From contig CAXIAD010000001.1 of the NCBI GenBank assembly GCA_964021645.1, positions 866 through 64,865 of the forward strand: 64,000 bases of DNA. Direction: 5' to 3'. The stretch comes from an uncultured Cognatishimia sp. GTDB lineage: Bacteria > Pseudomonadota > Alphaproteobacteria > Rhodobacterales > Rhodobacteraceae. The notes below the pieces were generated by a model that saw nothing but the letters and a program-made list of their open reading frames with translations, was not told the DNA's origin and did no database searches. Below, one piece after another: positions 44,329 through 61,344 of the stretch. The translations under genes and the position numbers were made by a program. Within the stretch, counting starts at the first letter, position 1, and each line of letters opens with the position of its first letter.

Positions 44329-46062
44329 TTAATTAACATTCGCGCAATCAAATATAATCACTTCGCGCTCCAGAAACAGGGGTTTTCGGGGCGCGATAAC
44401 ATGGGCCGCTGTGCACGTCTGGGCAAGGGACGCATAGAATTTCCGGAACGTGGCAGAGGGTGTTTCGTTGATAAGATACTCAAGATGCGAAACAACTATG
44501 ACGTCAAACCCCTGCGCGACCCAATGCTTTACCTGCCATTCCTGTTTTTGTAGCGGCCAGGCATAGGGCTTAACCTTGCCCTTTAATTCCTCATCCGTGG
44601 CATCCTCTAGCCCGAACATCACACCCGGCATGGGAATGTGAAACACCGATCCTGTTACATCTGTTTGGATCGTGCGTTCTGGCGCACGCTCTGGCATTTG
44701 CACATCATATTTTGCTGCCAACCCATCCAGTCGTGCAAATTCAAATGCCTGTGCTGCCATGGTTTTGGGAATGTCCAACACCACGCCGGTTAACACCTTG
44801 CGATCCGCGTATTCCTGCGAAATGATGCGGCTGATATCCTGCGTCACAGGGGCTGCTAGGGTTTGGCCCCATAACAACACCAGTGCATAGATCGACAGAG
44901 CCGCCGAGATGCCCAAGGCCCCCCATGCGATACCAGACACGGCCCTGCGGGCATGACCCGCCAGATCCACCAGCGCCAAGGCCGCCAGCAGTTGCATCAC
45001 CATGAAGAAACTGATCCACAAATGCTCTGGCTGACGTAAACGCACGACGGCGGCCAATAGCAATATGCCCACGCCTGTCACCAGCCACAGCGCCATCAGG
45101 GCACGTCGTTGCGGCAACCGACTGGCACCCGACATCAACAGTACCGGCAAGAGCAAAAACGCGATGACCATCACGCCATTGATCCCCCATTGCAAATGCG
45201 TCGCGCGATCCAGCCATAGGCCCATCGCTTGCCACAGGCTTGCGTCTTCTTGCACGGACATCACCGCCTGAATTTTCTGAAATGTAATGAAATTCTCAAA
45301 ATCCAGCACAATGCCGATATTCAGCACGGGCCACGCCACAAGGATCGTTAGCAATGAGGTGCCCAGCGCCCGTAAATATCCCCGCCCGCCAGTTTGCGGC
45401 AGCAACAACGCCCCGTGGGCAATCAGCAGCGGCACCAGAAAAAACACGAGTGAATGTTTAAAGCTAAGCCCGATCACAACCACCAGCCCCAGCATCACAT
45501 CAAGGCGCATAGAGGCAGGCACCCGCATGCGCTGCAAAAACACCAAAACGATCAAAATCGTCGCCGTTGCTAGCGGCACATCCCCCTTAGCGATAAACGA
45601 GAAATACACCCCAAGCGGTGTGATTCCCACCATCACACCAACAATGGCGGCCCGCGCAACAGATTGCTTTAACCCCCGTGCAATCACAAATGCCAATGGG
45701 GCAATCAGTGCGCCCATCGCGCCGGTTAAGAATCTGGCGGTGATGTAAAAAATCGTCGGGTCATCAAAATACTGTGCGCGAAAATCGCCCGCGCTTTGCC
45801 ACCACGACAGGCCCTTGCCTACGGCGAATAACCCGGCAAACCCAACCGCATTGATGTAATTCAACAGCGGCGGATAGAAATGTTGTCCGGGGATTAATTG
45901 GCCCGTCATGGCCTTGGCCGCGTCATTCATCCGCTCGTCGCCATGAAAATACCCATAGTCGACCCCAACGGACCGAATGGCCCAGGCCCCGATGAACAAC
46001 AGCAGCAAAACCAGATTTTCACGTCGCATTAATTTCACCACACCATCCCATAAGCAGCCCAT
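44329..46062 (-). CDS. GT-C fold membrane glycosyltransferase (ArnT/PMT_2, GT39/GT83-like) with periplasmic C-terminal domain
   Basis: 577 aa (alternative ATG 46029). About 11-13 TM helices. The first loop 'YFHGDERMND' carries an acidic motif as in GT-C enzymes, and a ~170-aa soluble C-terminal domain follows. Divergent from the HAD-UbiA gene. Confidence 0.65.
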   Translation of the reverse strand: MGCLWDGVVKLMRRENLVLLLLFIGAWAIRSVGVDYGYFHGDERMNDAAKAMTGQLIPGQHFYPPLLNYINAVGFAGLFAVGKGLSWWQSAGDFRAQYFDDPTIFYITARFLTGAMGALIAPLAFVIARGLKQSVARAAIVGVMVGITPLGVYFSFIAKGDVPLATATILIVLVFLQRMRVPASMRLDVMLGLVVVIGLSFKHSLVFFLVPLLIAHGALLLPQTGGRGYLRALGTSLLTILVAWPVLNIGIVLDFENFITFQKIQAVMSVQEDASLWQAMGLWLDRATHLQWGINGVMVIAFLLLPVLLMSGASRLPQRRALMALWLVTGVGILLLAAVVRLRQPEHLWISFFMVMQLLAALALVDLAGHARRAVSGIAWGALGISAALSIYALVLLWGQTLAAPVTQDISRIISQEYADRKVLTGVVLDIPKTMAAQAFEFARLDGLAAKYDVQMPERAPERTIQTDVTGSVFHIPMPGVMFGLEDATDEELKGKVKPYAWPLQKQEWQVKHWVAQGFDVIVVSHLEYLINETPSATFRKFYASLAQTCTAAHVIAPRKPLFLEREVIIFDCANVN

Positions 46063-46225
46063 TCACCACCAACATTTCACCCACTTTAGTGACGCCTTAA
46101 CGCCACATGGGTGAAAACACCGCATTCCTTGTCAAACAAAACCACAATTGGGTCAATTTTTTGGTGTCATCATGCACTAGACCGGGCAAAGTCGCCCCAT
46201 AACAGTAAAATTGAGACGTAACATC

Positions 46226-47680
46226 ATGGACGCTGTCCCGACAGACATTCACATACCACTTTTTGTGGATCTTGACGGCACGTTGATCAGAACCGACGTC
46301 GCCCAAGAGTTGCTGGTCAAAAGCCTTGGCACTCCCTCGCAAATCGGCGCGACGGTTGCGGCGGGCATGTCTGGCCGCGCGTCTCTTAAACATTTTCTGG
46401 CCAGCGCGAATGAGTTTGATGCGGCAACCCTGCCCTATCATCAGCAGGTTTTGGATTATTTAGCCGTAGAAAAGGCCAAGGGCCGCACAGTGATTTTGGC
46501 CACAGCCGCCGACATCGTTGTGGCGACCAAAATCGCCGACCATCTAGGTCTGTTTGATCAGGTCATTGCCTCGGATCAGCATCGCAATCTGAAAGGCGCG
46601 CAAAAACTTGCCGCCATTCGTGAAATCGCCGATGGCCCGTTTGAATATCTGGGTGATGCACGCGCCGATCTGCCGATCTGGCAGGAGGCCGCTGTTGTGG
46701 GTTTTGTGAACCCCTCCGCAGCGACCCGCGCAGCTGCCCCCAAAAACACCAAGGTGTCGCTGGATATTGGCGATAAACCACCGCTTGTACGGTCCATCAT
46801 AAAGGCGATGCGCCCGCATCAATGGACCAAAAATTGCCTGATATTTCTGCCGCTGTTTTTCTCTCATGGATATACCGACGGGGCGCGCGTTTTGAATGCG
46901 GTGATCGCCTTTGGCCTGTTTTGTCTGTTTGCCTCCTCCATCTATATCATCAACGATCTTCTGGATATCGAGGCCGATCGCCAACACGCCAAGAAACGCC
47001 ACCGCCCCTTTGCTGCCGGGCGTATGTTGCCCGTTCAGGGTGTAGTTACAGCCATCGGGCTGGCCGCCTTTGCATTCTTCATAAGTATGTCGTTACTAAG
47101 CGTTGCTATGTCGTTGATTTTCCTACTTTATATAGTGATTACAACGCTATATTCGGTCTGGCTGAAACATTACTCGACCATAGATGTGATCACCCTGACC
47201 TGCCTATATACCCTGCGTATTGTGGCTGGGGGCGTTGCAATTTCAGCCGTATTATCACCGTGGTTGTTGAACTTTTCACTGTTCTTTTTCCTCAGCCTTG
47301 CCCTGATGAAACGCTACATAGAATTGGTGCGCGTGCAAAAGGCAGGCAAGGAAAAATCCCGCGGGTATTACGTCACTGACCTACAGGCCGTTTTGCCAAT
47401 GGGGATCGCCAATGGCGGCCTCGCGGTGCTTACGCTGACACTATACCTAAACAGCGAATACGTGGCGCAAACCTATGCCTCGCCAACATTGCTATGGTTG
47501 GTTGCGCCGCTAACATTGTTCTGGGTGTACAGGGCATGGATCTGGGCATTGCGTGACAAAATCGACGATGATCCGGTGGTATTTGCCCTGCGCGATAAAA
47601 TCAGCCGCCTGACGTTATTTCTGACATGCGCATTGGTTATCAGCGCGAAATTCATCTCATTGGAGGCATGGTTTCAATGA
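46226..47680 (+). CDS. Bifunctional HAD-type phosphatase / UbiA-family polyprenyl-phosphate (phosphoribosyl)transferase fusion
   Basis: 484 aa. N-terminal HAD motifs (FVDLDGTLIRTD; ...VILATAAD...; YLGDARADLPIW). C-terminal 8-9 TM UbiA domain with 'NDLLDIEADRQHAKKRHRPFAAG' (NDxxDxxxD). ATG 46226 was chosen over TTG 46211. Confidence 0.75.
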   Translation: MDAVPTDIHIPLFVDLDGTLIRTDVAQELLVKSLGTPSQIGATVAAGMSGRASLKHFLASANEFDAATLPYHQQVLDYLAVEKAKGRTVILATAADIVVATKIADHLGLFDQVIASDQHRNLKGAQKLAAIREIADGPFEYLGDARADLPIWQEAAVVGFVNPSAATRAAAPKNTKVSLDIGDKPPLVRSIIKAMRPHQWTKNCLIFLPLFFSHGYTDGARVLNAVIAFGLFCLFASSIYIINDLLDIEADRQHAKKRHRPFAAGRMLPVQGVVTAIGLAAFAFFISMSLLSVAMSLIFLLYIVITTLYSVWLKHYSTIDVITLTCLYTLRIVAGGVAISAVLSPWLLNFSLFFFLSLALMKRYIELVRVQKAGKEKSRGYYVTDLQAVLPMGIANGGLAVLTLTLYLNSEYVAQTYASPTLLWLVAPLTLFWVYRAWIWALRDKIDDDPVVFALRDKISRLTLFLTCALVISAKFISLEAWFQ

Positions 47681-48042
47681 CGCTAAACGGGTTTATTCTG
47701 ATTGTGATCAGCGTGACATTCTCGGCCTTTGGACAAACCGCCTTTAAGATCGGCGTTGACCGGATCACCCTGCCGAGTGTCGCCAGCATGATGGACAAAT
47801 TACTGGGGTTCGCCAGCTCGCCCTTTGTGCTGCTTGGGCTATCGATGTACGGAATTGGCACGGTGTTTTGGCTATTGGCCTTGCGTCAAATGGACCTGTC
47901 ACTTGCCTATCCGTTTGTTGCGCTCAGCTTTATCATTGTGTTCATGATCGGTGTTTTTGGCCTTGGAGAGCCGGTGAACCCGACAAAAATCGCCGGATTG
48001 GCAATCATCACCCTTGGAATGATCGTTTTGTCGCGCGCTTGA
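47677..48042 (+). CDS. Small 4-TM SMR/EamA-like membrane protein (ArnE/ArnF-like candidate lipid-linked sugar flippase)
   Basis: 121 aa. ATG overlaps the stop of the HAD-UbiA gene (ATGA at 47677-47680). It has four hydrophobic helices and the sequence 'FGQTAFKIGV...LALRQMDLSLAYPF'. Confidence 0.6.
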   Translation: MTLNGFILIVISVTFSAFGQTAFKIGVDRITLPSVASMMDKLLGFASSPFVLLGLSMYGIGTVFWLLALRQMDLSLAYPFVALSFIIVFMIGVFGLGEPVNPTKIAGLAIITLGMIVLSRA

Positions 48043-48070
48043 TGTACCGCGCGCGCCAAAATTGCCCTGA

Positions 48071-48880
48071 TTAGTAGCTGATCACACCTTCGGCCTTGTT
48101 CAACACAACACCCAGCAATGGCTTTATCCCGCCCAAAAGCCGCTCTGCCTCCAACACTTCCTCGGCTTTGGACTTACCCCCGCCAACTACATAGATCACA
48201 CCATCAACATTGGGTAAGAACGCGACCAGATCGTCATGCTCCAGCACGGCTGGCACATCAAAGATCATCATCTCAGGGCAGAACACATCTTGCACTTCGT
48301 CCAGCACTTCGGATGTCATGGCCTCTTGCAGCAATTCCGCTGGGTTTTCGGCAGGCTCTTTCACCAGCCCAAGCGCAAGGTTATGCCCCACACGTTGCAA
48401 AAAATCCTCGGGCGCGATGTGACCACCCAGATATTCCTGCATGTCTGCCTCGGGTGTCACGCCAAATAACTTGGCCAGCATTGGCGTGCGCAAATCGAAA
48501 TCCATCAAAACCGTTCGGCATGAATCCCGACGCGCCAGGGCCACCGCCAAATTAGCCGCGACAAAGCTTTTGCCGCATCCGCTAGTCGGGGATGAAATCG
48601 CAACGCGCGTCCAGCCATTTTCACGCATCGCCAACAATAAACGCGTGCGCAGCATGTCAAACGACACATGCGCAGGGTCATTTCTGGCGGCGCTGACGAT
48701 CCGGTTTTTGGCGAGATGTTTATCACTGAGCTGAGCAGGTTTCATCGCCTGCCATACCAGATCAAGATCCTGCAACGCCGGAACCTGATGTTCGGCACGA
48801 TCTGCGCCTTCTGATGCCACGGGTGTATCATTCATGCTGTGTTTCTGCTCCTTGGGGCGACTTGCAACATTCGACCCCAT
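48071..48880 (-). CDS. Stand-alone BY-kinase-type P-loop ATPase (CpsD/CapB/ExoP C-terminal domain-like), no Tyr-rich tail
   Basis: 269 aa (alternative ATG 48835). Walker A 'SPTSGCGKSFVAANLA', Walker A' 'VLMDFDLRTP', Walker B 'MMIFDVPAV'. The C-terminus ..LNKAEGVISY has a single Tyr. Confidence 0.75.
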   Translation of the reverse strand: MGSNVASRPKEQKHSMNDTPVASEGADRAEHQVPALQDLDLVWQAMKPAQLSDKHLAKNRIVSAARNDPAHVSFDMLRTRLLLAMRENGWTRVAISSPTSGCGKSFVAANLAVALARRDSCRTVLMDFDLRTPMLAKLFGVTPEADMQEYLGGHIAPEDFLQRVGHNLALGLVKEPAENPAELLQEAMTSEVLDEVQDVFCPEMMIFDVPAVLEHDDLVAFLPNVDGVIYVVGGGKSKAEEVLEAERLLGGIKPLLGVVLNKAEGVISY

Positions 48881-48960
48881 ACTCGTTTTACATCATCAAT
48901 TTTTGGCTATGGTGCTACGCGACATTCCGGTCAAAATGATGGCACACCCTTGGCCTTGCG

Positions 48961-51087
48961 TCAAAATCCGAAAAGATTTGCCTCTGAAATTGCTTTCCTA
49001 ACAAACTGCGCGCGGTCCGCCTCTGGTGTCCAGCCAAGAACCATCTTGGGGTGTTGGTTGTTAAACGCCGAAAAATGCGCCCGCGATTTCCAATCCCTAC
49101 GTGAGGCCCTAACCGCGCCCTGTTTACCCAGAACATAGCGTTTCAGCGTGTATTTGATCGCATCCGCCATCCAGAATGCTGTCAAATTCCCCGCGCTCAC
49201 ATCAATGTGCGCGCCAAGCGCATCATGAACCGCATCAAAATATCCACGCGCTGACAGCATGGGATCACCAACAAGATTAAAGCTTTTACCCACGGCAGCA
49301 TCCACTGTCATCATGCTGATCAGCCCATCAACCACATCGTCAATCAACACAAACGGCAATATATGCCGCCCGTTTCCCCAGATGCGCACGGCCCCCGCGC
49401 CATGCCAACGCCCGATGCCCCAATGTTGCAACGGACCCCCCGCGCCAACCACAATGCCGGGCCGCGCGATCACCAGCGGCAAGCCCCGATCCCGGTGCAT
49501 CGCCAGCAACCGTTCTTCGCACATCGCCTTGGATCGCGCATATAGGTTTCGATCGGTCATATCCGCGCCAAATCCGGTTGTTTCGGTAATCGTAACCGAT
49601 GCCTCAGACATATCATAAGACGCGATTGTCCCCGTATAAACGAACCGCTTTACCCCCGCCTCAAGGGCGGCTTTTGCGATGCGTTCCGTCACGCCGACAT
49701 CGTTTTTCAGGCAGTCTTCCCATGTCCCGTCCAGCGATTTACCGAGGTGATACACCGCCTCAATTCCCGCCATCGCGCCCTGCATGGCCTGATCATCATG
49801 CAACGATGCTGAATACAGCTCCACATGGTCGGCAATGTCGTCAAACGGGCCAGTGCGCCCCCGACTTAGCACACGCACATCATGACCAGCCGCGACCAAG
49901 CCACGGGTCAACCCGCGTCCGATAAACCCTGTTCCACCAATCACCAGAACGGTTGGCTTTGGTGTATTGCGACTCGCAGGTACGGGTTTCGCACCCTGCT
50001 CGGGCAGCAATGCCAACGTGTCATCTATGCCCTTCATCACCGTGACGGCCGCGTTGATGTTAAACCGTTGATCAACGGGGGTGCCGTTTTGGATGGCTGT
50101 ATAAAACGCCCCAATCGCCCCCCGAAAGCTAAGGCCATAGGGGGATTTTCGGTTCAACGAGGATAGTTGTCGTGCGCCGTTCACCACGCCTTCGCGCAGG
50201 TGCCGCCCAGCCAAGCCGACCTGTTTGCGCAGCGGGTTCAGAATGATGTCAGATGCATTCTCCCCCTCAACAATCAACGTATCGGCGGCATAATCAAACC
50301 GCGCCCGCCCGGTAGATCCGCGCACCGTGACCGACCGATCATCGACGGTTTCCACCATCGACAGGTTCAATGTCACATCTACATCACCCGCACGTGCAAT
50401 AATGCGCCATGACTGAGGGCGTGCTGTATCTGCGGGCAGCTCAATCGGTTTGCCCAAGCTCAAATATTCAATCTCCAGCGGGCCAAATAGATCAACAGCA
50501 AAGCCAAACAAATGCGGCCCCAACTCCAACAGCAAATTCCGGGTTTCACGCATCAGCCACAGCCCGAATGGCCCGGACCGCAACGGTGCAAGCGGGAAAT
50601 GCCAATTGATTTCAGCCGACCCAATGCGGCCCAATTGACCCGATGAAACCAGCGATTGCAGACGTTCATAGGATGGCATGCCCATAAAGTTATGCCCGGC
50701 GGCAACCTGTTTGGCGGCCTGATCCGCAGCACTGGCAATCGCCACTGTATCAGCGTGCGACAACGCGACAGGTTTCTCGACAAAGCAATGCATTCCGGCC
50801 GCCAAACACGCCTGAGCAAGGGCCGCGTGTGAATCCGGTGGGGTCAAAATATGCACCGCATCCAACTGACCCGCCGCCAGCATCTCATCCAGATCAGCAT
50901 AGGCCTGCGCCCCATTTGCATCGGCCAACCCGCGCGCCGCCGCCATCGACATATCGCACACCGCGACCAGATCGACGCCGGACGTGGCCCGTATGGCCTC
51001 CGCATGCCAATCGGCAATATATCCCGCACCAATGATGGCAGTACGAACTGGAGCTTGGGTCATCGTATTATTCTCTTTCTCAGGCAT
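48961..51087 (-). CDS. Two-domain fusion: Gfo/Idh/MocA oxidoreductase (N-terminal) plus NAD-dependent epimerase/dehydratase SDR (C-terminal)
   Basis: 708 aa. N-terminal 'AIIGAGYIADWH...CFVEKPVA' (Gfo/Idh/MocA Rossmann + EKP). C-terminal 'VLVIGGTGFIGRGL' and 'YARSK' (extended SDR). Confidence 0.8.
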   Translation of the reverse strand: MPEKENNTMTQAPVRTAIIGAGYIADWHAEAIRATSGVDLVAVCDMSMAAARGLADANGAQAYADLDEMLAAGQLDAVHILTPPDSHAALAQACLAAGMHCFVEKPVALSHADTVAIASAADQAAKQVAAGHNFMGMPSYERLQSLVSSGQLGRIGSAEINWHFPLAPLRSGPFGLWLMRETRNLLLELGPHLFGFAVDLFGPLEIEYLSLGKPIELPADTARPQSWRIIARAGDVDVTLNLSMVETVDDRSVTVRGSTGRARFDYAADTLIVEGENASDIILNPLRKQVGLAGRHLREGVVNGARQLSSLNRKSPYGLSFRGAIGAFYTAIQNGTPVDQRFNINAAVTVMKGIDDTLALLPEQGAKPVPASRNTPKPTVLVIGGTGFIGRGLTRGLVAAGHDVRVLSRGRTGPFDDIADHVELYSASLHDDQAMQGAMAGIEAVYHLGKSLDGTWEDCLKNDVGVTERIAKAALEAGVKRFVYTGTIASYDMSEASVTITETTGFGADMTDRNLYARSKAMCEERLLAMHRDRGLPLVIARPGIVVGAGGPLQHWGIGRWHGAGAVRIWGNGRHILPFVLIDDVVDGLISMMTVDAAVGKSFNLVGDPMLSARGYFDAVHDALGAHIDVSAGNLTAFWMADAIKYTLKRYVLGKQGAVRASRRDWKSRAHFSAFNNQHPKMVLGWTPEADRAQFVRKAISEANLFGF

Positions 51088-51095
51088 TCAACCGC

Positions 51096-52076
51096 CTACT
51101 TATACTCAATAATTCGCATTTTGCGGCCACGCAGCCGCCGCCATGCAAAAACCATCATGCCAATGATGTTCGGAAACTTTGACAGACTCAAAAACGCTGC
51201 CTGCTGACGCGCGGTATCCTTAGGCAAACCATCAGTTACCAACCCTTTTACCGTGCGCAGATACGACACGGCATATAGCCCGATGACCGCCGCAACCACC
51301 CACGCAGACCACGCCATACCAATCAGCGCAATGCCCGGTAAAACCCCGCCAAACACCATAACCCGGCGACGTTCCTTGCTGAAATAGGGCGGGTGCATCG
51401 TGCCGACCTGCGCAAAGCCGTGACCGCTGCGAATGGCACGCTGCCACCATTGGCCAAACCGCGTCATATCCGCGTCATGCCGGGTCATCTTTTCGGGCAG
51501 GCGGTGTATTTTCCTGCCCGCCTTGCGCAGGCGAATGCAAAACTCATCATCTTCTGCGGCGATCACCGAGGGATCAAATCCTCCCGCCTCCTCAAACGCC
51601 ACAGACCGCACGGCCATATCCCCACCACAGGTCAGAATATCCCCCGCAGGTCGATGCCATTCAAAATCACAAAGCGCGTTGTAAATGGATCGCTCTGGGT
51701 GAATTTCTGATCGCCACCCCGTGATAATCCCGCAGGTTTCATCTGCCTGTAACGCCGTCACCGCCTGCGCGACCCACCCCGATTCAACGATGCAATCGCC
51801 ATCAAAAAAATGCACAAATTCAGGTAAATCACCGCTTTTCTTTAGCGCTTCAAACCCGGCATTGCGCCCACGCGCGGCGGTAAACGGGCGATCTGGTGAC
51901 AGCTCCACAACTTGCGCACCGAGGTCGCGCGCCGCCTGCACGCTTTGATCCGTTGAACCGGAATCCACATAAACAATCTGCGCCACCTGCCCTGCCAATG
52001 ACGTCAGGCACGCAACTAAACGCGCGCCCTCATTGCGGCCAATGACAACGGCGGCAATTTTCGCAGTATCGCTCAT
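51096..52076 (-). CDS. Glycosyltransferase family 2 protein with C-terminal TM segments
   Basis: 326 aa. 'AAVVIGRNEGARL...VYVDSGSTDQS' and the 'FFDGDC' DxD-type motif, with hydrophobic helices near the C-terminus. It overlaps the upstream GT4 stop. Confidence 0.8.
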   Translation of the reverse strand: MSDTAKIAAVVIGRNEGARLVACLTSLAGQVAQIVYVDSGSTDQSVQAARDLGAQVVELSPDRPFTAARGRNAGFEALKKSGDLPEFVHFFDGDCIVESGWVAQAVTALQADETCGIITGWRSEIHPERSIYNALCDFEWHRPAGDILTCGGDMAVRSVAFEEAGGFDPSVIAAEDDEFCIRLRKAGRKIHRLPEKMTRHDADMTRFGQWWQRAIRSGHGFAQVGTMHPPYFSKERRRVMVFGGVLPGIALIGMAWSAWVVAAVIGLYAVSYLRTVKGLVTDGLPKDTARQQAAFLSLSKFPNIIGMMVFAWRRLRGRKMRIIEYK

Positions 52077-53347
52077 GCGTCGCCCTCATGTTTTGACGGG
52101 CGTAAGGTGGTCACGGGCTGCTGCACCGCGTAACTCGTGAGTATTTCTGATAGCCATCCAGCCTCGGTCGTTAGGTTGAATTCGGCGCACACCTTGGCGC
52201 GGCCCTGCTGCCCCATTTGATCGCGTAAATCCTGATTGCCGAGCAGCGTTGTGATGGCCTCTGACAGCGTGTCCTCATCCCCAGGCGCAACCACAAAACC
52301 ACTGATCCCATCCTCAACCAATTCAGGGATTCCAGCGATCCGCGTGGCCACAACGGGCAGGCCTGCGGCCATCGCCTCCATCAATACCACTGGCACGCCC
52401 TCGGCAAAACTTGGCAGCACTAACGCATCTGATTGCGCCAAAATCTGCGCCACCTCGTCTTGTGATTTATAGCCTACAAAATCAACAATTCCGTCCAGAC
52501 CCGCGACCCTTACATCCTGCTCTAACGCCGCGCGATCAGGGCCATCCCCGATCATCACCAGCCGTGCCTCAGGCACGTTTGCAACCACGCCCGCCATTGC
52601 ATTCAGCAACACAGGCACGCCCTTAACCGCCGACATTCGCCCAATAAACACAAGGTTTTGCGATGCCGGGCGACCTGATTGCGGCGCATAGCGTTCAGGC
52701 TCAATTCCGCAATGCACGATGTGTAATTTATGCCACTGCGATGCCTGCGAAAACGCCATCGCCTGCGATCTGCAAAAATGGCTGATACAGGCGACAAACC
52801 GCGCCTTTGCGATTTTCAAATCCAGCCGCCATTCCTCTGGCGCAAAAAAGATATCCGGCCCATGCAGTGTGAAACTAAACGGGATACCCGACATTTCCGC
52901 GGTGATCATCGCCAAGGAGCAACTGGATTTCGCGATATGATTGTGCAGATGCGTTACCGATTTGCGCCGTAAATGATCGGCCAATACCGCCGCCTCGGCA
53001 AAGTAAAACAACTGAAACAGCAGCCCCTTTAGGCCCGGTCGTCCCGATGTCAACGCTAGGCGCAAGGCCTTGGCGTACCGCTTCGGCGAACGCAAAAACG
53101 CCTTGCCATGACAGGCCACAAACCGCATCGGCGATTTGGCGGCTGCAACAATATAAAACGTCTTTGCGGCTTCTGCACGTTGCTCTGGGCCGACCAAATG
53201 CTCAACGCCAGTTTTGCGAACTGAGCACGTCTCAACCTCATGTCCCAACGCACGTAATGCCATGATTTCACGCTGAATAAACGTGTCGGTGGCGCGTGGG
53301 TATTCACCCGTCAAATAGGCAATTCGCGTCTTTGGTTCACGCATCAA
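52073..53347 (-). CDS. Glycosyltransferase family 4 protein (WcaL-like)
   Basis: 424 aa. N-terminus 'RIAYLTGEYPRATDTFIQRE'. C-terminal 'PSFAEGVPVVLMEAMAAGLPVVATRIAGIPELVEDG' (E-x7-E GT4 motif). Confidence 0.85.
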   Translation of the reverse strand: MMREPKTRIAYLTGEYPRATDTFIQREIMALRALGHEVETCSVRKTGVEHLVGPEQRAEAAKTFYIVAAAKSPMRFVACHGKAFLRSPKRYAKALRLALTSGRPGLKGLLFQLFYFAEAAVLADHLRRKSVTHLHNHIAKSSCSLAMITAEMSGIPFSFTLHGPDIFFAPEEWRLDLKIAKARFVACISHFCRSQAMAFSQASQWHKLHIVHCGIEPERYAPQSGRPASQNLVFIGRMSAVKGVPVLLNAMAGVVANVPEARLVMIGDGPDRAALEQDVRVAGLDGIVDFVGYKSQDEVAQILAQSDALVLPSFAEGVPVVLMEAMAAGLPVVATRIAGIPELVEDGISGFVVAPGDEDTLSEAITTLLGNQDLRDQMGQQGRAKVCAEFNLTTEAGWLSEILTSYAVQQPVTTLRPSKHEGDA

Positions 53348-54335
53348 CCGCCCCTCCTACGGCCCGCGCCATCGCATCCTCAAACCCGTAGGTCGATGTC
53401 CAACCTAGCTGTTCGTGCAGCTGCTGGTTTGAATATCGCAACGGTTTTAGGCGCGCCGCAAACACATCTGAACGCAGCAAGCCGGGCAGCTTTTCTGTCT
53501 CCGGTAACAGGGCAATCAGGGTCGACCAAATTGTGGGCGAAACGGGCAGCACCCATCGCGGCCACCCAGATTTTTGCAGTGCCCGCACAAACGCGCCTCG
53601 TTCGGGCAAACCATCATCCAACACATTAATGACACGGCAATTTCCGGCCTCATCAGGACGCGCAACAGCACAGGCAATCGCCTTGGCACAGTGTTCTATA
53701 TACGCAATCGGCACCTGCCCCCGACGGCCCAACTGGATCAAAAAAGGACCAAACCCAACACCTATATGGGCATTAAACACCTGACCATCCCCGTAGATCG
53801 CGCCGGGTCGTAGCACGGTCAACGCGATACCCTGTTTCATCGCCTGATCGCGTACCAAATCCTCTTGTGCCAGCTTTGCCTGACAATAGGCATCTCGCCG
53901 TTCAGGTCGGCTTTCTAATGCGCAGCTTTCATCCAAACAGGCCCCGGCCGCCAAATTCCGAACCTGATAAACCGCAAGCGAGCTAAGGTGCACCAAATGG
54001 GCCACACCGGCCTGCGCGATGCCATCTAACAGCACCCGCGTCGCGGTTAATGTGTCGCGTTCATGCGCGCCCGCCGCCCCGCTAAGCGAACCCGCGCAAT
54101 GCACAACCGCTATCGCCCCATTCAGGACACCGCACAACTGACCCAGCCCATCAACACCAGCCAGATCTATTTCCGAAACCTCAATGCCTACATCCTCGCC
54201 CCACGCCTTTGGCGCGGTCGATTTTCGACGCACAATCGCACGGACCCCATATCCATGGCCGCGCAATTTCGCCACGGCAGCCCGCCCGACAAAGCCCGCA
54301 GCCCCCGTCACCACAACGTATTTTCCCGCGTTCAT
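53337..54335 (-). CDS. NAD-dependent epimerase/dehydratase family SDR
   Basis: About 332 aa from ATG 54335, whose ATGA overlaps the stop of the upstream Gfo/Idh/MocA gene. 'VVVTGAAGFVGRA' and 'YCQAK' (YxxxK). Confidence 0.8.
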   Translation of the reverse strand: MNAGKYVVVTGAAGFVGRAAVAKLRGHGYGVRAIVRRKSTAPKAWGEDVGIEVSEIDLAGVDGLGQLCGVLNGAIAVVHCAGSLSGAAGAHERDTLTATRVLLDGIAQAGVAHLVHLSSLAVYQVRNLAAGACLDESCALESRPERRDAYCQAKLAQEDLVRDQAMKQGIALTVLRPGAIYGDGQVFNAHIGVGFGPFLIQLGRRGQVPIAYIEHCAKAIACAVARPDEAGNCRVINVLDDGLPERGAFVRALQKSGWPRWVLPVSPTIWSTLIALLPETEKLPGLLRSDVFAARLKPLRYSNQQLHEQLGWTSTYGFEDAMARAVGGAVDA

Positions 54336-55453
54336 TTCGCCCATGACATCGGCTCTACGGGATCGCATTTCGTTTGCATGACTTGGGCGCCCGTATCCGA
54401 ACCAGCCCCTTGAATCGCAAGCGTCACCTCATTCAGATGCAGCGCAAAATCAGCCGACAAACGGCATTCCCGCCCCTCAGAAATTGCCTCAAGCATCTCA
54501 ACCGGACCCAGCGCAAAATTCATCGCAGCAGCCCCCCAGCGTTTCACCTTGGGATGCGTCTTTTTGCCCAACTTAATCCGCCGCCCAATGGGATGTTCAA
54601 CCAACCGTCTGCGCAACTGAAACCGCCGATAAAACCGAACAGGCGCGGCATTGTCCCATGCGCGCGTGACCCGCAAAACACCTTTGTCGCCGAAAATCCT
54701 GATCTGATGATCATGGCTACCAACAATCGAACAGGTCAGCCGCGCCACCACACCGTTGGCAAAAAACAACGTCGCAATAGACACATCGGGCGTGCCCTGC
54801 CCATCTGGGTTTTTCTCGGGGATTACCGTGGCAGAGGCAGCTATCACCCGCTCAACCGATCCAAACCAACCGATTAGCCATGTCAAATAATACCCTGCAT
54901 GCTCCACCGTGCAACCAGTGCGAAATTCATCCGCCGCAGGCCACGCCCGCCCGGATTCCGACCGCCATCCGTCAAACGGGGCCTGTGGAATATACCCATC
55001 ATCCAGCTCTGCATAAATCAAACGCGGCTTACCCGCGACACCGTCCCGCAGCGCCTTGCCCAATGTTTGCGCGGCCTGCCCCAATACGCTGCACGGAGCC
55101 GAGGCCAGCATCAAATTCCGCGCCCGCGCCAGTTCGGTTAACGCGGTCGCATCCACCATCGACATCGCCAGCGGTTTTTCGGAATAGACATGCATCCCCG
55201 CCTCAAGACATTGACGCGATACATCATAATGCGCCGCCGGATTGGTCAGATTCAGCACAAGACTGCCCGCCGCCTGCTGCGCCAGAAACCCCTCCATCGT
55301 GTCACAAGCAATCAGGCCCCAATACTGCGCAAATGTCTGCGCGCGCTCTGGATCATGATCATAAACACATGACACCTGAACAGTCGGATGCGCCTTTAGG
55401 GATCGCATGTATAAATCGGCCACGAATCCACAGCCAATGATCGACAAAGCCAT
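54332..55453 (-). CDS. Gfo/Idh/MocA family oxidoreductase
   Basis: About 373 aa from ATG 55453. 'LSIIGCGFVADLY' and 'VYSEKPLA'. Translationally coupled to the downstream SDR. Confidence 0.8.
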   Translation of the reverse strand: MALSIIGCGFVADLYMRSLKAHPTVQVSCVYDHDPERAQTFAQYWGLIACDTMEGFLAQQAAGSLVLNLTNPAAHYDVSRQCLEAGMHVYSEKPLAMSMVDATALTELARARNLMLASAPCSVLGQAAQTLGKALRDGVAGKPRLIYAELDDGYIPQAPFDGWRSESGRAWPAADEFRTGCTVEHAGYYLTWLIGWFGSVERVIAASATVIPEKNPDGQGTPDVSIATLFFANGVVARLTCSIVGSHDHQIRIFGDKGVLRVTRAWDNAAPVRFYRRFQLRRRLVEHPIGRRIKLGKKTHPKVKRWGAAAMNFALGPVEMLEAISEGRECRLSADFALHLNEVTLAIQGAGSDTGAQVMQTKCDPVEPMSWAK

Positions 55454-55645
55454 CACGTCATCTCTCTCGCTGTGTTGCACCAATCGCACCTTTTACTTTG
55501 CCCAACCTTTGCTGGCAGCCTGACATCTAAACCCGAATTTTGGCTAAACTATATCGGAAAGGCGTCAATTTTCCAGATTAAGACCATTTGGCGTCAATGA
55601 ATGGAAATCCTTTAACAATCTACCCTCTGGTTTTGCCTAAACTCC

Positions 55646-56440
55646 GTGTTAAAGCTCACATATCACAATTCCTGCCAACGGAGGCATCGCGTGCGGTTCA
55701 AGACTTGCTCGGGCGACATTTCAATCACCCATGAAACGCGCACGGCTCTATTCGCTGCGGTCAAAACGGCGTTGCTGGCAAAAACCGGATTTGCGCTGGC
55801 GACGCTAAACCTCGATCATTTGGTGAAACTCGTTCACGATCAGAAATTTGCCGTGGCCTATGGCAGACACGACATGATCGTGGCGGATGGCAATCCGATT
55901 GTCTGGCTTAACCGGCTTGCCGGGCAGGACATCGAATTGTTGCCCGGTTCTGATCTGGTACTGCCGCTGGCACGGCTAGCGGCAGAAACCGACACACCGA
56001 TTGCATTGCTTGGCAGCACAGACGCCACCCTAACCGATACAGCGCGGGCCATGCAGGCGGATATTGCAGGGCTTAAGGTTGGGTTTTCAGTTGCGCCCCC
56101 CTTTGGTTTTGATCCCTCGGGACCAGAGGCGATTGCCCTTTTGAAACAGCTGCACACATCTGGCGCGGGTCTGTGTTTTTTGGCACTTGGCGCCCCAAAA
56201 CAAGAGATTTTGGCCAGCCTAGGCAGGAAACACGCCCCAAATGTGGGATTTATCAGCATCGGTGCAGGCCTTGATTTCATCGCAGGATCGCAAAAACGCG
56301 CGCCCCGCGTTGTACGTGCTTTGGCGATGGAGTGGTTGTGGCGCTTGCTCAGTAACCCGGCACGTTTGGCCGCACGCTATGCGCGTTGTTTTGCGATATT
56401 GCCGGGGTTGATTTTTTCAGCGCGCAAACAACGCAAATAG
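55646..56440 (+). CDS. WecB/TagA/CpsF family glycosyltransferase (GT26)
   Basis: About 250-264 aa (start uncertain, GTG). 'LATLNLDHLV...ADGNPIVWL...LLGS...LALGAPKQE...IGAGLDF' fits GT26. Confidence 0.8.
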   Translation: MLKLTYHNSCQRRHRVRFKTCSGDISITHETRTALFAAVKTALLAKTGFALATLNLDHLVKLVHDQKFAVAYGRHDMIVADGNPIVWLNRLAGQDIELLPGSDLVLPLARLAAETDTPIALLGSTDATLTDTARAMQADIAGLKVGFSVAPPFGFDPSGPEAIALLKQLHTSGAGLCFLALGAPKQEILASLGRKHAPNVGFISIGAGLDFIAGSQKRAPRVVRALAMEWLWRLLSNPARLAARYARCFAILPGLIFSARKQRK

Positions 56441-56447
56441 ATCAGGC

Positions 56448-57764
56448 TTAGTCCTCAAAGGGCGCGGGTTTCTCCCCCCGACCCAAAACCCAATGATACA
56501 CTTCTTCGATTTGGGCGGCCTTGCGCTCCCATGTCAGTAGCTGAGCAATCCGGTTTTTCGCCTGAACACCCGCCGCAGTCACAAGATCCGGCTCGGCAGC
56601 CAACCGTGTCAGCTCCGCCTCAAACCCTTGAATGATTTGCACACGGGTGCCCAACGGCACCTTAAACCCCCAGCCGTCTTTCACCAACTCGCCCGGCCCT
56701 GCATAATCGACAATCAACGCCGGTACACCCAGCGCCATGGCCTCCAACACAACCCCCCCGCCAAACTCTCGTACCGAAGGAAAGCTCATCAGATTACAGC
56801 GTTTCAAAACCCCCTGAACCTGATCATGCGCCAACCAGCCGTGGAACGTCACAGCATGCGAAACACCCGCATCCTCAGCCTGCTGTTTCAGCGCCTCCAG
56901 CATGGGACCATCGCCAACAATATCCAGCGTCATGCGCCCGTCTCGCAGCAAATTCTCGGCTGCGGTCAACAACATATCCGGTCCCTTATAGGGCACCATG
57001 CGTCCGACAAAACACGCCCTCAGCGGTTGTCCCGTGGGGGCGGCATTGCCCGAGAACCGCACAGGATCAATTGCGTTTTCAGGAATATATACGCATTTTT
57101 TCTGATATTTTTCAGGCACTTCACTTTGGGTAAACCGTGATCCTGTTATGATCGCCGCCGCATGCTTCAGGCTCGCTTTGCGCCCCGGCAATGCCTTATA
57201 GGCGCCGCGCACATACGACAGCCATTCACGCTCGCGGCGTCGTTCGCCGTCAAACCCTTTGGGCCACGGCACCCCACCATTTAGCGGCCCCATGACAAAA
57301 GGCACCCCCACCTGCGCACAGCGTTTCGCCAGCAAGCTCGGGATCGTCGGACTAAGCGGGGTGACGCGGTGCACCACATCAAATTCACCCGCCTTGATCC
57401 GTGCCCCAAACTGCCGCCATATCAACCGCTCAAAATACGGATACGATAGGGCATTGATTAACTGAAGCGCAGTCCAGCCCTTCCCATTGCCCATGCGCAA
57501 AACCGATCCCAATGCCCATAATGGCCGCGCGATAGCCTCAGAATCAATCGCCGTAAAATCCTCGCCTTCGCGCCAACCTGCCCGCAAAATCGCCTCGCGG
57601 TTACGGATTTGCGTCACAACATGCACATCCATCCGCCGCCCCAAGGCCTGCGCCAATGACCAGCCGATCAATGGCACGCTGACCCATTCCGGGTTTGCGG
57701 CCTCGGCGATCACCAATACCTTTAGCGCCCGTTGTGATTTGCTGTCAGCCCCCGACGCCATCAA
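56448..57764 (-). CDS. Glycosyltransferase family 4 protein
   Basis: 438 aa. C-terminal 'FPSVREFGGGVVLEAMALGVPALIVDYAGPGELV' (GT4 E-x7-E region). Its start overlaps the stop of the Wzy-like gene. Confidence 0.8.
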   Translation of the reverse strand: MMASGADSKSQRALKVLVIAEAANPEWVSVPLIGWSLAQALGRRMDVHVVTQIRNREAILRAGWREGEDFTAIDSEAIARPLWALGSVLRMGNGKGWTALQLINALSYPYFERLIWRQFGARIKAGEFDVVHRVTPLSPTIPSLLAKRCAQVGVPFVMGPLNGGVPWPKGFDGERRREREWLSYVRGAYKALPGRKASLKHAAAIITGSRFTQSEVPEKYQKKCVYIPENAIDPVRFSGNAAPTGQPLRACFVGRMVPYKGPDMLLTAAENLLRDGRMTLDIVGDGPMLEALKQQAEDAGVSHAVTFHGWLAHDQVQGVLKRCNLMSFPSVREFGGGVVLEAMALGVPALIVDYAGPGELVKDGWGFKVPLGTRVQIIQGFEAELTRLAAEPDLVTAAGVQAKNRIAQLLTWERKAAQIEEVYHWVLGRGEKPAPFED

Positions 57765-59278: not shown

Positions 59279-59480
59279 CTCTCTTCAGCGTCCTTTTTTC
59301 TGCCCATTTCCCGCGATTTACGCGTAAAATGAACAACTTATCCGATCCAGCACCAACAGCAGTTTCTGTTCGTGCAAGACATTGATATCTGCGTCACCAT
59401 CTATTTGACACCAAGGCTTTGCCCTTTTTTAGTCAGAAATAGGGTTTATTGCGTACACACCACTGCAAAGGACGGGCCGA

Positions 59481-60659: not shown

Positions 60660-60678
60660 CCCTTTCGCGGCAAAGGCC

Positions 60679-61344
60679 TTACTGACCTGTGCCGATCAAA
60701 ACAACGCCAACGGTGCGCAAAATTGTCAAGAAATCCGCACGCAAGGAAATTTCACGGTAATAAATCGTGTCGTGCAACGCACGCTCTGAGAAATTGCTCT
60801 CATTGCGGTCAGACACCTGCCAGTATCCGGTGATCCCTGGGCGCATCGCATAATAGGCGACACCAGGGTAAATATCGCGCTGATTGACCATCATCGGGCG
60901 CGGCCCAACAATCGACATTTCACCAGTCAGCACGTTCCACAGCTGCGGCAACTCATCAATAGAGCACTTGCGGATCAACTTACCAAAGCGGGTAATGCGC
61001 GGGTCATTGCGCAGTTTTTGCTTGTCGTCCCACTCGATGCGGGCCTCAGGATTGCTGTCCAGATAGGTCTCCAGCAGGTCATCCGCATTGGGCACCATGC
61101 TGCGCAGTTTGAGCATGCTGAACGCACGTCCATTCAACCCGATGCGGCGTTGCGTATAAAATGGCGAGTGGCCATCACGGGCAATGAACAGCGCCGCGCA
61201 TCCGATGATGATCAACGCGACCGGTGCCAACGCAACAGTAAGAATAATATCAATCGCGCGCTTAGCAAAGCCGCGATAGATGCCGTAGCGTGGTGCATCC
61301 AATACAAACGCGTCGGGAAAATCCCGATGTGAAAAATACGCCAT
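60679..61344 (-). CDS. Polyisoprenyl-phosphate hexose-1-phosphate transferase (bacterial sugar transferase, ExoY/WbaP C-terminal type)
   Basis: 221 aa. One N-terminal TM helix, then 'FYTQRRIGLNGRAFSMLKLRSM...DELPQLWNVLTGEMSIVGPRP...PGITGYWQV', the hallmark Bac_transf motifs. Confidence 0.88.
   Translation of the reverse strand: MAYFSHRDFPDAFVLDAPRYGIYRGFAKRAIDIILTVALAPVALIIIGCAALFIARDGHSPFYTQRRIGLNGRAFSMLKLRSMVPNADDLLETYLDSNPEARIEWDDKQKLRNDPRITRFGKLIRKCSIDELPQLWNVLTGEMSIVGPRPMMVNQRDIYPGVAYYAMRPGITGYWQVSDRNESNFSERALHDTIYYREISLRADFLTILRTVGVVLIGTGQ

Follow-up and report, generated by a model that had tools for sequence, protein, structure and literature searches.

Three adjacent genes in the 64-kb stretch of DNA that was analyzed here (the window), encoding a GT-C glycosyltransferase, a HAD-UbiA fusion protein, and a small four-TM protein (Table 1), very probably (a probability of about 0.82) form a three-component lipid-linked pentofuranose system of the Citrobacter youngae kind, which would decorate a glycan outside the cytoplasm. 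This figure covers the type of system alone; the identity of the sugar is graded separately below. Such a system has already been published [Kelly et al., PNAS 2024, PMC11127046] and so is not new; judged by its sequences, the trio appears to be a marine Rhodobacteraceae example of it. It departs from the Citrobacter prototype in the clade-restricted sequence family of its GT-C and in a C-terminal alpha/beta domain that has no match in the PDB.

The original prediction took the trio for a self-contained route to a polyprenyl-P-pentofuranose donor in the periplasm, for use in glycan decoration, and the component-for-component match to the C. youngae system (PMC11127046) bears this out. It also held that the pathway is uncharacterized in Rhodobacterales, which agrees with the literature that could be searched. 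However, its view of the HAD-synthase fusion as a non-canonical solution does not stand, since a Gram-negative prototype, ORF15, is already published and the fusion has an NCBIfam model of its own, NF006088.

Table 1. Coordinates of the trio, its domains, and neighboring genes in the window
Feature	Position	Strand	Remarks
GT-C-fold polyprenyl-phosphate-sugar-dependent glycosyltransferase	44329-46062	-	577 aa; predicted periplasmic pentofuranosyltransferase
GT-C soluble C-terminal alpha/beta domain	44332-44850	-	residues ~405-577; predicted periplasmic; presumed acceptor-binding module
Divergent intergenic region, GT-C/fusion	46063-46225	.	163 bp; presumed promoters
HAD-UbiA fusion gene	46226-47680	+	484 aa, single ORF
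HAD-family phosphoribose-5-phosphate phosphatase ('PRP') domain	46226-46780	+	residues ~1-185; Pfam PF12710
UbiA-fold polyprenyl-phosphate 5-phosphoribosyltransferase ('PPPRS', Rv3806c-like) domain	46781-47680	+	residues ~186-484 and stop codon; NF006088
Four-TM EamA/ArnE-F/EmrE-like small membrane protein	47677-48042	+	121 aa; predicted polyprenyl-P-pentofuranose flippase
Polysaccharide (EPS/CPS) biosynthesis cluster	48071-63147	- (mostly; two genes +)	context, not part of the trio
GFO+SDR fusion	48961-51087		708 aa; Epimerase domain (PF01370)
GT2	51096-52076		326 aa; hydrophobic C-terminal stretch (sequence reading); 3 kb from the trio
SDR	53337-54368
GFO	54332-55489

The fusion protein and its small membrane partner

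As had been claimed, one polypeptide carries an N-terminal HAD domain and a C-terminal multi-TM UbiA domain. Pfam places HAD at residues 13-150 (36.4 bits) and UbiA (PF01040) at residues 223-450 (75.7 bits), and the quoted motifs are all present, with DLDGT at residue 15, GDARAD at 143, and NDLLDIEAD at 243. A possible earlier TTG start at 46211 would add five residues; the ATG at 46226 is favored because the homologue P0001 (89% identity) has the same length, 484 aa, and its alignment covers 100% of the query.

From end to end, the fusion matches the NCBIfam model NF006088, at 539.4 bits against a cut-off of 351. The DPPR-synthase models give 129-155 bits, below their own cut-offs, and the ubiA, heme o synthase, quinone, and other prenyltransferase models give 45 bits or less, far under theirs. 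In addition, Rv3806c (8j8j, E=2.2e-30) is the only PDB sequence that the fusion matches. Thus, the affinity of the UbiA domain is to DPPR synthase and not to the quinone or heme prenyltransferases. The PRPP/Mg ligands defined by the structure of Rv3806c (PMC10994848) are all kept in the window fusion; across 189 sequences, the equivalents of R22, K28, Y70, N73, D77, K87, R90, Y138, K143, and Y157 are near-invariant, with that of K208 the only one that is not. In the HAD domain, each of D15, D17, T19, T93, K127, and D148 is retained by 152 or more of the 163 fusion orthologues, and the catalytic Asp residues that the original prediction had singled out are retained by 162 of them.

The 121-aa gene starts (ATG, 47677-47679) before the fusion gene has ended (TGA, 47678-47680), and a GGAGG motif precedes this start at 47662-47666. 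The predicted ATGA overlap is therefore real, and because of it the gene is probably translationally coupled to the fusion gene. Orthologues lie directly 3' of the fusion gene in seven other loci (L001, L002, L025, and L081-L084), with the same 4-bp overlap in L081, L083, and L084. The proposed four-TM SMR/EamA-like character is also upheld: the protein has four hydrophobic segments and scores 30.3 bits against Pfam EamA, above the cut-off of 28.2. Against the NCBIfam models it reaches 51.9 bits for ArnF and 36.1 bits for ArnE, both under cut-off.

The divergent GT-C protein and recurrence of the trio

A divergent 577-aa GT-C with a soluble C-terminal domain had been described, and the ORF, the model, and the extent of the domain confirm it. 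The AlphaFold2 model has a pLDDT of 93.4 and a pTM of 0.91, and all 24 of its Foldseek matches in the PDB at E<=1e-3 are GT-C enzymes, including STT3, DPY19, ArnT (5ezm), PglB, Pmt4, AftA, and ALG9. The earlier label 'ArnT/PMT_2-like' is loose as to PMT_2: the sole Pfam match is to PMT (PF02366), at 23.5 bits barely over the cut-off of 22.7, and PF13231 (PMT_2) is precomputed for some homologues only. Among 45 homologues, D42-E43 after TM1, K159, D161, and K202 are invariant, as are, in the C-terminal domain, Y452, P457, P479, G484-L485-E486, W502-P503, Q505, W509, W514, K560, and the C550/C573 pair. Modeled alone, this domain reaches a pLDDT of 95.2, and a Foldseek search of the PDB with it returned no match at E<=1e-3 (best, E=0.25); its predicted fold appears to be one with no solved relative. 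Furthermore, sequence comparison detected no relationship between the GT-C and the candidate GT-Cs encoded next to other synthase genes, and no match at E<=1 to the Emb/Aft proteins in the PDB; the GT-C belongs to a clade-restricted sequence family. In the divergent intergenic region, a scan for consensus sigma-70 elements gave nothing above background, and for this reason the promoters there are only inferred.

The trio is found in eight loci, the window and the seven named above. Because it recurs with differing flanks, its arrangement is no accident of position. In addition, the longest contig of at least 24 of 86 GT-C homologues has the same length as that of a fusion homologue, and this suggests that the two are on one contig.

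A proposed pathway and its known counterparts

In the proposed model, each of whose four steps is drawn for the window clade from homology, the UbiA-fold domain would act at the cytoplasmic face, moving 5-phosphoribose from PRPP onto a polyprenyl phosphate, presumably undecaprenyl-P, as its homology and conserved ligands suggest. The HAD domain of the same protein would then strip the 5-phosphate, giving polyprenyl-P-ribofuranose. The 121-aa protein, probably as a dimer, would carry the lipid-linked sugar to the periplasmic face, a role suggested by its family and position. Finally, the GT-C, given its modeled fold, could place the pentofuranose on an already polymerized surface glycan, for which the product of the adjoining EPS cluster is the most plausible candidate, with the conserved C-terminal alpha/beta domain of the GT-C probably binding the acceptor.

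The C. youngae O1/O2 system supplies the prototype. ORF15 consists of an N-terminal HAD phosphatase and an Rv3806c-like synthase and has been shown by experiment to make undecaprenyl-P-ribofuranose from PRPP; membranes with ORF15 convert PRPP and farnesyl-P to farnesyl-P-Ribf, and a D18A mutant yields the 5-phosphate intermediate (PMC11127046). ORF14 is a four-helix EmrE/ArnE-like transporter, and ORF12, the GT-C that founded GT136, transfers Ribf or Xylf; in O1, there is no epimerase and Ribf is transferred (PMC11127046). The window fusion has the same domain order, with catalytic residues at nearly the same positions: the ORF15 residues mutated in C. youngae, D18, N247, D248, D251, D255, R366, and E369 (PMC11127046), map to D15, N243, D244, D247, D251, R363, and E366, D15 being the counterpart of the nucleophile D18. 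The 121-aa protein is likewise small, four-helix, and EmrE/ArnE-like, both GT-Cs have an additional C-terminal periplasmic domain (predicted in the window), and both sets of genes lie at the edge of a polysaccharide cluster. However, the window GT-C is divergently transcribed, unlike its counterpart, and its C-terminal domain is alpha/beta without a PDB match, whereas that of ORF12 is a beta-rich CBM. The window cluster looks Wzy/tyrosine-kinase dependent and the C. youngae cluster is ABC-transporter dependent; the window host is a marine alphaproteobacterium from an order not in the survey of PMC11127046.

The mycobacterial decaprenyl-P-arabinose pathway (Rv3806c, Rv3807c, DprE1/DprE2, Rv3789, and Emb/Aft GT-Cs) also has a PRPP-dependent UbiA-fold synthase followed by 5-dephosphorylation, flipping, and GT-C use outside the membrane. 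However, its phosphatase is a separate PAP2 enzyme rather than a fused HAD domain, its transporter is GtrA-like rather than EamA/ArnE-F-like, its lipid is decaprenyl rather than presumably undecaprenyl, and it has Emb/Aft GT-Cs and both DprE1 and DprE2, where the trio has a single GT-C and the 64 kb show neither epimerization enzyme. The pilin D-Araf system of Pseudomonas aeruginosa Pa5196/PA7 (PsPA7_6245-6249 and TfpW) is, like the window trio, a Gram-negative system in which an Rv3806c homologue goes with a small membrane protein and a GT-C, but it has a separate phosphatase, DprE1/E2, a GtrA-like protein, a pilin target, and sugar genes unlinked from the GT-C gene. Closer in taxonomy are loci of the Araf type that carry the same kind of HAD-UbiA fusion (about 40-43% identity) on plasmids of Rhodobacterales (Cereibacter sphaeroides p.A and Ruegeria conchae) and are known from annotation only. 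After the fusion gene come a GtrA-family gene, genes for an FAD-binding oxidoreductase and an SDR, and one for a hypothetical protein of about 530-540 aa; the window clade differs in lacking the epimerase pair and in having an EamA-like transporter and another GT-C family. The ArnT/ArnE/ArnF system for lipid A aminoarabinose resembles the trio in its small four-helix transporter, from the same superfamily, and in a GT-C that acts on an undecaprenyl-P-pentose donor, and ArnT is among the structural matches of the GT-C model. However, the Arn donor is derived from UDP-Ara4FN via ArnA-D, which were not found in the window, and the small protein falls under the ArnE/ArnF cut-offs.

Alternative readings, the sugar, and the acceptor

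It is hardly credible that the fusion joins a phosphatase to a prenyltransferase of the aromatic or quinone type and that the membrane proteins beside it are unrelated. JGI does call some homologues '4-hydroxybenzoate polyprenyltransferase/phosphoserine phosphatase', and the generic Pfam UbiA model matches, but the NCBIfam scores, the sole PDB match, the retained Rv3806c-specific PRPP-binding residues, and a glycan-related genomic context all argue otherwise. Very improbable, too, is a Gtr-/Arn-like system in which the GT-C and the small transporter use a GT2-made polyprenyl-P-hexose or an Ara4N donor, the HAD-UbiA protein being unrelated. NCBI names the GT-C homologues 'ArnT family glycosyltransferase', ArnF and ArnE are the best NCBIfam matches of the small protein, and the nearby GT2 recurs in L001 and L002. 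However, the transporter gene overlaps the fusion stop codon here and in relatives, the GT2 was not found in L081-L084 and matches neither a GtrB/ArnC/DPMS protein in the PDB nor such a model of NCBIfam above cut-off, and ArnA/B/C/D-type genes were not found in the neighborhood.

Within the Citrobacter-type reading, the likeliest transferred sugar is D-ribofuranose. A ribofuranose rather than an arabinofuranose donor is favored because the trio is not accompanied by DprE1/DprE2 or an ORF13-type epimerase: nothing DprE1-like was detected in the 64 kb of the window or, in L001, L002, and L025, within 10 kb, and the annotations of L081-L084 contain no FAD-binding/short-SDR pair. DprE1 and DprE2 adjoin Rv3806c-type synthases, fused or stand-alone, at about 25 other loci. 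Of the 'DPR/DPA-like' donor first proposed, the DPR-like half is consequently the better call and the DPA-like half is unlikely. The same machinery might nonetheless export a donor that has already been epimerized and so transfer arabinofuranose or xylofuranose; this is unlikely, whether the epimerase is a DprE1/DprE2 or ORF13-like enzyme elsewhere in the genome or one of the SDR/GFO enzymes encoded in the neighboring cluster. Published systems do diversify through added epimerases, ORF13 being a GalE-like SDR, and the view of the genome spans 64 kb only. Furthermore, the adjoining EPS cluster has three SDR/GFO-type redox enzymes, and the GFO+SDR fusion, with its Epimerase domain, also occurs in the trio-bearing clusters of L002 and Agarilytica (L082). 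However, the epimerase lies inside each locus in the published systems (PMC11127046), and every Araf-type locus surveyed has DprE1/E2 within about 8 kb of the synthase, with none near the eight trio loci. The GFO+SDR fusion instead acts like an EPS-backbone gene, since it is widely conserved in Rhodobacteraceae (63-73% identity), is separated from the trio in Shimia sp. SDUM112013 (contigs of 683,808 and 194,405 bp, respectively), and was not found within 10 kb on either side of the trio in L081, L083, and L084.

The adjacent cluster encodes a tyrosine autokinase, the GFO+SDR fusion, the GT2, three GT4s, an SDR, a GFO oxidoreductase, WecG/TagA, a Bac_transf initiating transferase, and Wzz, and the trios of L002 and of Agarilytica, a gammaproteobacterium, are flanked by a comparable gene set. 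Its product is likely to be the acceptor glycan. The acceptor could instead be LPS or another glycoconjugate, because in one of the eight loci, that of Shimia, the trio stands alone, apart from any glycan cluster; the original view that the trio decorates the glycan of the adjacent cluster is thus plausible but not obligatory. If the GT-C inverts configuration as the prototype does, the transferred residue would be an alpha-linked side chain.

The HAD-UbiA fusion and its published counterpart

The central gene of the trio, which comprises a GT-C gene, a HAD-UbiA fusion gene, and a gene for a small membrane protein, encodes both enzyme domains in one polypeptide (see the table), for which an exact-sequence look-up returned no identical record. 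The protein scores 539.4 bits with the NCBIfam model NF006088/PRK08238 (cut-off 351), and its residues 8-475 correspond to positions 10-480 of the 482 in this full-length HAD+UbiA profile, whose database name is only "UbiA family prenyltransferase." Since a curated model is matched end to end, the HAD+UbiA architecture is already a recognised family. The best non-self NCBIfam matches are three models of decaprenyl-phosphate phosphoribosyltransferase (DPPR synthase) at 129-155 bits, versus 45 bits or less for heme o synthase, UbiA, and other prenyltransferase models, and the sole PDB relative found by sequence is Rv3806c (8j8j, E=2.2e-30). Thus, the UbiA domain is of the DPPR-synthase type rather than the quinone or aromatic type, as had been proposed.

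Features of the window and of comparison loci
Feature	Sequence	Position	Strand	Length (aa)	Content
GT-C	window	44329-46062	-	577	
GT-C C-terminal soluble domain	window	44332-44850	-		residues 405-577; alpha/beta, predicted periplasmic
HAD-UbiA fusion	window	46226-47680	+	484	one polypeptide; HAD PF12710 residues 13-150, UbiA PF01040 residues 223-450 (Pfam)
Small four-TM protein	window	47677-48042	+	121	
EPS cluster	window	48071-63147			Bac_transf initiating transferase, Wzz, tyrosine autokinase, three GT4s, GT2, WecG, GFO/SDR enzymes
GFO/IDH/MocA + SDR "Epimerase" fusion	window	48961-51087	-	708	in EPS cluster
GT2	window	51096-52076			
Separate SDR gene	window	53337-54368	-	343	same cluster as 708-aa fusion
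Separate GFO gene	window	54332-55489	-	385	same cluster as 708-aa fusion
ORF without Pfam match	window	57761-59278	-	505	inside EPS cluster
4'-phosphopantetheinyl transferase gene	window	63270-63947	-		4PPT_N + ACPS
Araf-type locus, Cereibacter sphaeroides plasmid p.A	L086	7917-14600			
Araf-type locus, Ruegeria conchae plasmid	L087	7974-13541			
Araf-type locus, Bradyrhizobium sp. Tv2a-2	L046	8537-13558			

In Rv3806c, Mg is bound by N73 and D77, the ribose 5-phosphate by K28, Y70, and Y157, and the pyrophosphate by R22, K87, R90, Y138, K143, and K208 (PMC10994848). The window fusion keeps equivalents of every one of these ligands, and in a MAFFT alignment they are near-invariant across 189 relatives, the K208 equivalent excepted. 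The Asp-rich loop and R/E residues are kept as well (N243, D244, D247, D251, R363, E366). The reading also needs the catalytic Asp residues of the HAD domain to be kept in orthologues, and in the same type of alignment the DxDGT residues D15 and D17 are each conserved in 162 of 163 fusion proteins; taking the catalytic residues together (D15, D17, T93, K127, D148), each is conserved in at least 152.

Three-component systems that add pentofuranoses outside the cytoplasm were described by Kelly, Duong, Nothof, Lowary, and Whitfield (PNAS 2024, PMC11127046). In the prototype, from Citrobacter youngae O1, ORF15 (AWU66546.1) joins a HAD "PRP" domain at its N-terminus to an Rv3806c-like "PPPRS" domain at its C-terminus, and membranes containing ORF15 convert PRPP and farnesyl-P to farnesyl-P-Ribf, reported at m/z 435. 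The D18A substitution causes the 5-phosphate intermediate, reported at m/z 513, to build up, while little or no activity is left when N247, D248, D251, or D255 is mutated. The GT-C of the prototype, ORF12, ends in a CBM rich in beta-strands; it transfers Ribf or Xylf, founded family GT136, and has an essential acidic residue by TM1 (D31/E34). Epimerases are optional extras: ORF13, an SDR, leads to Xylf, and DprE1/E2 lead to Araf. Only for the C. youngae prototype has it been demonstrated that polyprenyl-P-Ribf is formed from PRPP and that its pentofuranose reaches a glycan (PMC11127046).

As judged from sequence, the window trio matches this published system part for part. The window has the UbiA-fold homologue of Rv3806c and of the C-terminal half of ORF15, with its Asp-rich loop and PRPP ligands; the HAD phosphatase (PRP) with its Asp nucleophile, again fused; and, by predicted structure, a GT-C-fold enzyme encoded with the synthase. 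Seven residues of the window fusion (D15, N243, D244, D247, D251, R363, E366) are of the same types as the published ORF15 residues, with their numbering steadily shifted by 3-4 positions. The three ORFs, the domain fusion, the ATGA overlap, and the divergent GT-C gene are all present where the original prediction placed them, and the match supports its proposal that the trio would be a route to a lipid-linked pentofuranose donor for a glycan. Its further suggestion that a HAD-synthase fusion is non-canonical has been overtaken, since experiments characterised this type of system in 2024 and a curated model already covers the fused architecture. The mycobacterial DPA pathway uses a separate PAP2 phosphatase, Rv3807c, whereas the window has a fused HAD domain, and its GtrA-like Rv3789 differs from the window transporter, which is EamA/ArnE-F-like. 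The ArnA-D donor genes of the Arn lipid A system are absent from the neighbourhood of the trio.

The survey in PMC11127046 names Citrobacter, Stenotrophomonas, Rathayibacter, Burkholderia, E. coli, Rhizobium, Xanthomonas, Bacillus, and one phage, and Rhodobacterales are absent from it. A search for later literature on the three-component system found only that paper and its commentary, and a homologue search of a phage collection returned one unannotated fragment only. The pathway had been described to us as uncharacterised in Rhodobacterales, and the literature searched is consistent with this; the window locus is the first three-component system described from that group.

The small membrane protein and the GT-C

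The ATG of the 121-aa ORF (47677-47679) overlaps the TGA stop of the fusion gene (47678-47680) and is preceded at about 10 nt by a GGAGG motif, an arrangement that suggests that the two genes are translationally coupled. The product has four hydrophobic helices and scores above the Pfam EamA cut-off; its best NCBIfam matches, both below cut-off, are ArnF (51.9 vs 99 bits) and ArnE (36.1 vs 92 bits). Profile searches detected orthologues in seven other loci. As a small, multi-helix protein encoded with the synthase, it would be the transporter of the system, with a predicted role in flipping. It is of the same kind as C. youngae ORF14 (AWU66545.1), a four-helix protein that resembles EmrE and ArnE and that its authors call MATE (PMC11127046). 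Among these relatives the family names need some care. EmrE is a classic SMR protein. In the ORF14 section and Fig. S4 of PMC11127046, ORF14, EmrE, and ArnE are labelled "MATE family" and GtrA and Rv3789 "SMR"; given that "MATE" is thereby applied to EmrE, the transporter labels of that paper do not correspond to those in Pfam/TCDB.

The GT-C gene is separated from the fusion gene by a 163-bp gap. The only sequence-family match of its product is Pfam PMT, just over threshold, and there is no NCBIfam match. An AlphaFold2 model made from an alignment of 45 homologues (A1) has a pLDDT of 93.4 and a pTM of 0.91, and when it was searched against the PDB with Foldseek, all 24 matches at E≤1e-3 were GT-C enzymes, including STT3/OST, DPY19, ArnT, PglB, Pmt4, AftA, and ALG9. 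Residues D42-E43, directly after TM1, and K159, D161, and K202 are invariant among the 45 homologues; the D42-E43 pair is a candidate counterpart of D31/E34 of ORF12. The GT-C gene adjoins the synthase gene in the window and the comparison loci (eight in all), the large membrane protein of the Candidatus Cybelea locus being a different one. A GT-C identical in sequence to that of the window is present on a 4.7-kb JGI metagenome contig. Promoter (sigma-70) and terminator scans of the region gave background level only.

The C-terminal domain sets this enzyme apart from ORF12. Whereas ORF12/GT136 ends in a beta-rich CBM, the window domain, modelled alone with a pLDDT of 95.2, has a mixed alpha/beta fold, and Foldseek found no significant match to it in the PDB (best E=0.25). 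The domain is not a recognisable beta-rich CBM. It contains many invariant residues, including the pair C550/C573. A profile of the window GT-C, run against GT-C candidates encoded beside other synthase genes, matched only partners within its own clade, and there are no Citrobacter proteins among its named homologues. An exhaustive HMMER search of 1.84 billion proteins yielded 104 representatives at E≤1e-30 and 1,272 at E≤1e-10. The window GT-C is clade-specific, and this family, with its unmatched C-terminal domain, is a candidate for structural and CAZy study.

Distribution of the trio and the pentofuranose it would supply

Homologues of the fusion number more than 7,500 proteins at E≤1e-10 and occur in many Rhodobacteraceae, Cellvibrionaceae, Acidobacteriaceae, Myxococcota, Bradyrhizobium, and other groups, and 104 plasmid records contain one. 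A 928-aa "extended fusion" from Myxococcota was discarded as an over-extended ORF, its N-terminal ~460 residues being Arg/Pro/Gly-rich and of low complexity. When 80 related loci were searched by plain tblastn with the GT-C and the small protein, partners turned up in the closest relatives alone, and the method was replaced by crude gene maps, TM counts, Pfam scans, profile searches, and Pfam-annotated neighbourhoods. With these, the trio of PMT-like GT-C, fusion, and EamA-like small gene was found again in seven other loci: in an uncultured Rhodobacteraceae MAG (fusion 89% identical), Cognatishimia, Shimia, Thalassovita gelatinovora (CP051181.1), Roseovarius sp. THAF9 (CP045404.1), and the gammaproteobacterium Agarilytica rhodophyticola (CP020038.1), where the three genes are on one strand, and in Candidatus Cybelea, where the fusion and small gene accompany the different large membrane protein. 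For at least 24 of 86 GT-C homologues, the longest contig is equal in length to that of a fusion homologue, which suggests that the two are on one contig.

The flanks of the trio vary among these loci, and in Shimia it lies amid unrelated genes with no glycan cluster. Because it recurs with differing flanks and stands alone in Shimia, the trio acts as a portable cassette, found alone, beside LPS-type genes, or within EPS clusters, and held in common with gammaproteobacterial Cellvibrionaceae. Agarilytica has, along with the trio, an EPS gene set similar to that of window 44329-55489 (GFO, GT4, SDR, GFO+SDR fusion, GT2), which suggests that the whole cassette has moved horizontally between Rhodobacteraceae and Cellvibrionaceae.

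Downstream of the synthase gene, fused or stand-alone, about 25 other loci have genes whose products are of the FAD_binding_4/ALO and adh_short types and are DprE1-like and DprE2-like, respectively. Annotated examples, on plasmids of Cereibacter sphaeroides and Ruegeria conchae, also have a GtrA-family gene. In these Araf-type versions from other Rhodobacterales (L086 and L087), which appear to be uncharacterised, the HAD-UbiA fusion and the GtrA-family gene are accompanied by genes for a FAD-binding oxidoreductase, an SDR, and a possible GT-C, the last annotated as a hypothetical protein of ~530-540 aa. In the Araf-type locus of Bradyrhizobium sp. Tv2a-2, a GT87-family GT-C gene is divergent from the HAD-UbiA fusion, downstream of which come a DprE1-like and a DprE2-like gene. 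Several unrelated GT-C families therefore serve as partners of the synthase.

The original prediction had been of a DPR/DPA-like donor, and of these the DPR-like one is favoured. No DprE1-like sequence was detected anywhere in the 64-kb window at E≤0.01, which tells against a DPA-like product, and the only SDR match in the DprE2 search of the window is generic (23% identity) and far from the trio, at about 5.7-6.3 kb. DprE1/E2 were not found within 10 kb in the three loci from the uncultured Rhodobacteraceae MAG, Cognatishimia, and Candidatus Cybelea, nor was the pair found near any trio locus. The Rhodobacteraceae/Cellvibrionaceae trio sequences group as a single clade when the UbiA domains are placed in a neighbour-joining tree, and that clade is nested among epimerase-associated sequences. 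The parsimonious product of the trio would be polyprenyl-P-ribofuranose, as in C. youngae O1, and the window system is probably ribofuranose-specific.

If so, a ribofuranose side chain is predicted on an EPS or LPS of these bacteria. Surface polysaccharides of the Roseobacter group influence biofilm formation, algal symbiosis, and phage susceptibility, and a recently defined pathway of glycan diversification is now extended to this marine group. The window trio opens no new mechanistic question. Uninformative or wrong names are also corrected, namely, "UbiA family prenyltransferase" and [quoted passage not shown] for the fusion, together with the misleading "dolichyl-phosphate-mannose-protein mannosyltransferase" for the GT-C.

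The adjoining EPS cluster and other donor readings

The product of the adjoining EPS cluster, a gene set similar to which also flanks the trio in Agarilytica, would be the most likely glycan acceptor of the window trio. Two genes of this cluster invite other views of the donor. The GFO+SDR fusion might serve as a dedicated lipid-pentose epimerase: it lies close to the trio, and Agarilytica encodes a 714-aa GFO+Epimerase protein in its own cluster. Yet many Rhodobacteraceae have this fusion at 63-73% identity, the trio neighbourhoods of Shimia (L081), T. gelatinovora, and Roseovarius lack it, and in Shimia sp. SDUM112013 it is on a different contig from the trio. Being unlinked from the trio in several genomes, it was rejected in this role as the main reading and more likely belongs with the EPS backbone genes of the cluster. 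Likewise, the GT2 could be taken for the donor synthase of a Gtr- or Arn-like system, but this reading was rejected, as the GT2 has no GtrB/ArnC/DPMS similarity and is absent from the Shimia, Agarilytica, T. gelatinovora, and Roseovarius loci.

A bolder proposal joins two ideas: that the GT-C of the Rhodobacteraceae/Cellvibrionaceae trio founds a new GT family, unrelated in sequence to GT136 and the Araf-type GT-Cs and with an alpha/beta domain in the periplasm that binds the acceptor and has a fold unseen in solved structures, and that, in clusters of this sort, epimerisation of the ribose on its lipid carrier falls to the co-clustered GFO/SDR enzymes, not to DprE1/E2 or ORF13. We regard this combination as very improbable. 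Were the epimerisation to occur, it would add a third route to a pentofuranose donor other than ribose, one that does not depend on DprE1.

Within the EPS cluster, the 505-aa ORF may be its Wzy polymerase or Wzx flippase. The 4'-phosphopantetheinyl transferase gene lies just past Wzz, at the far end of the cluster.
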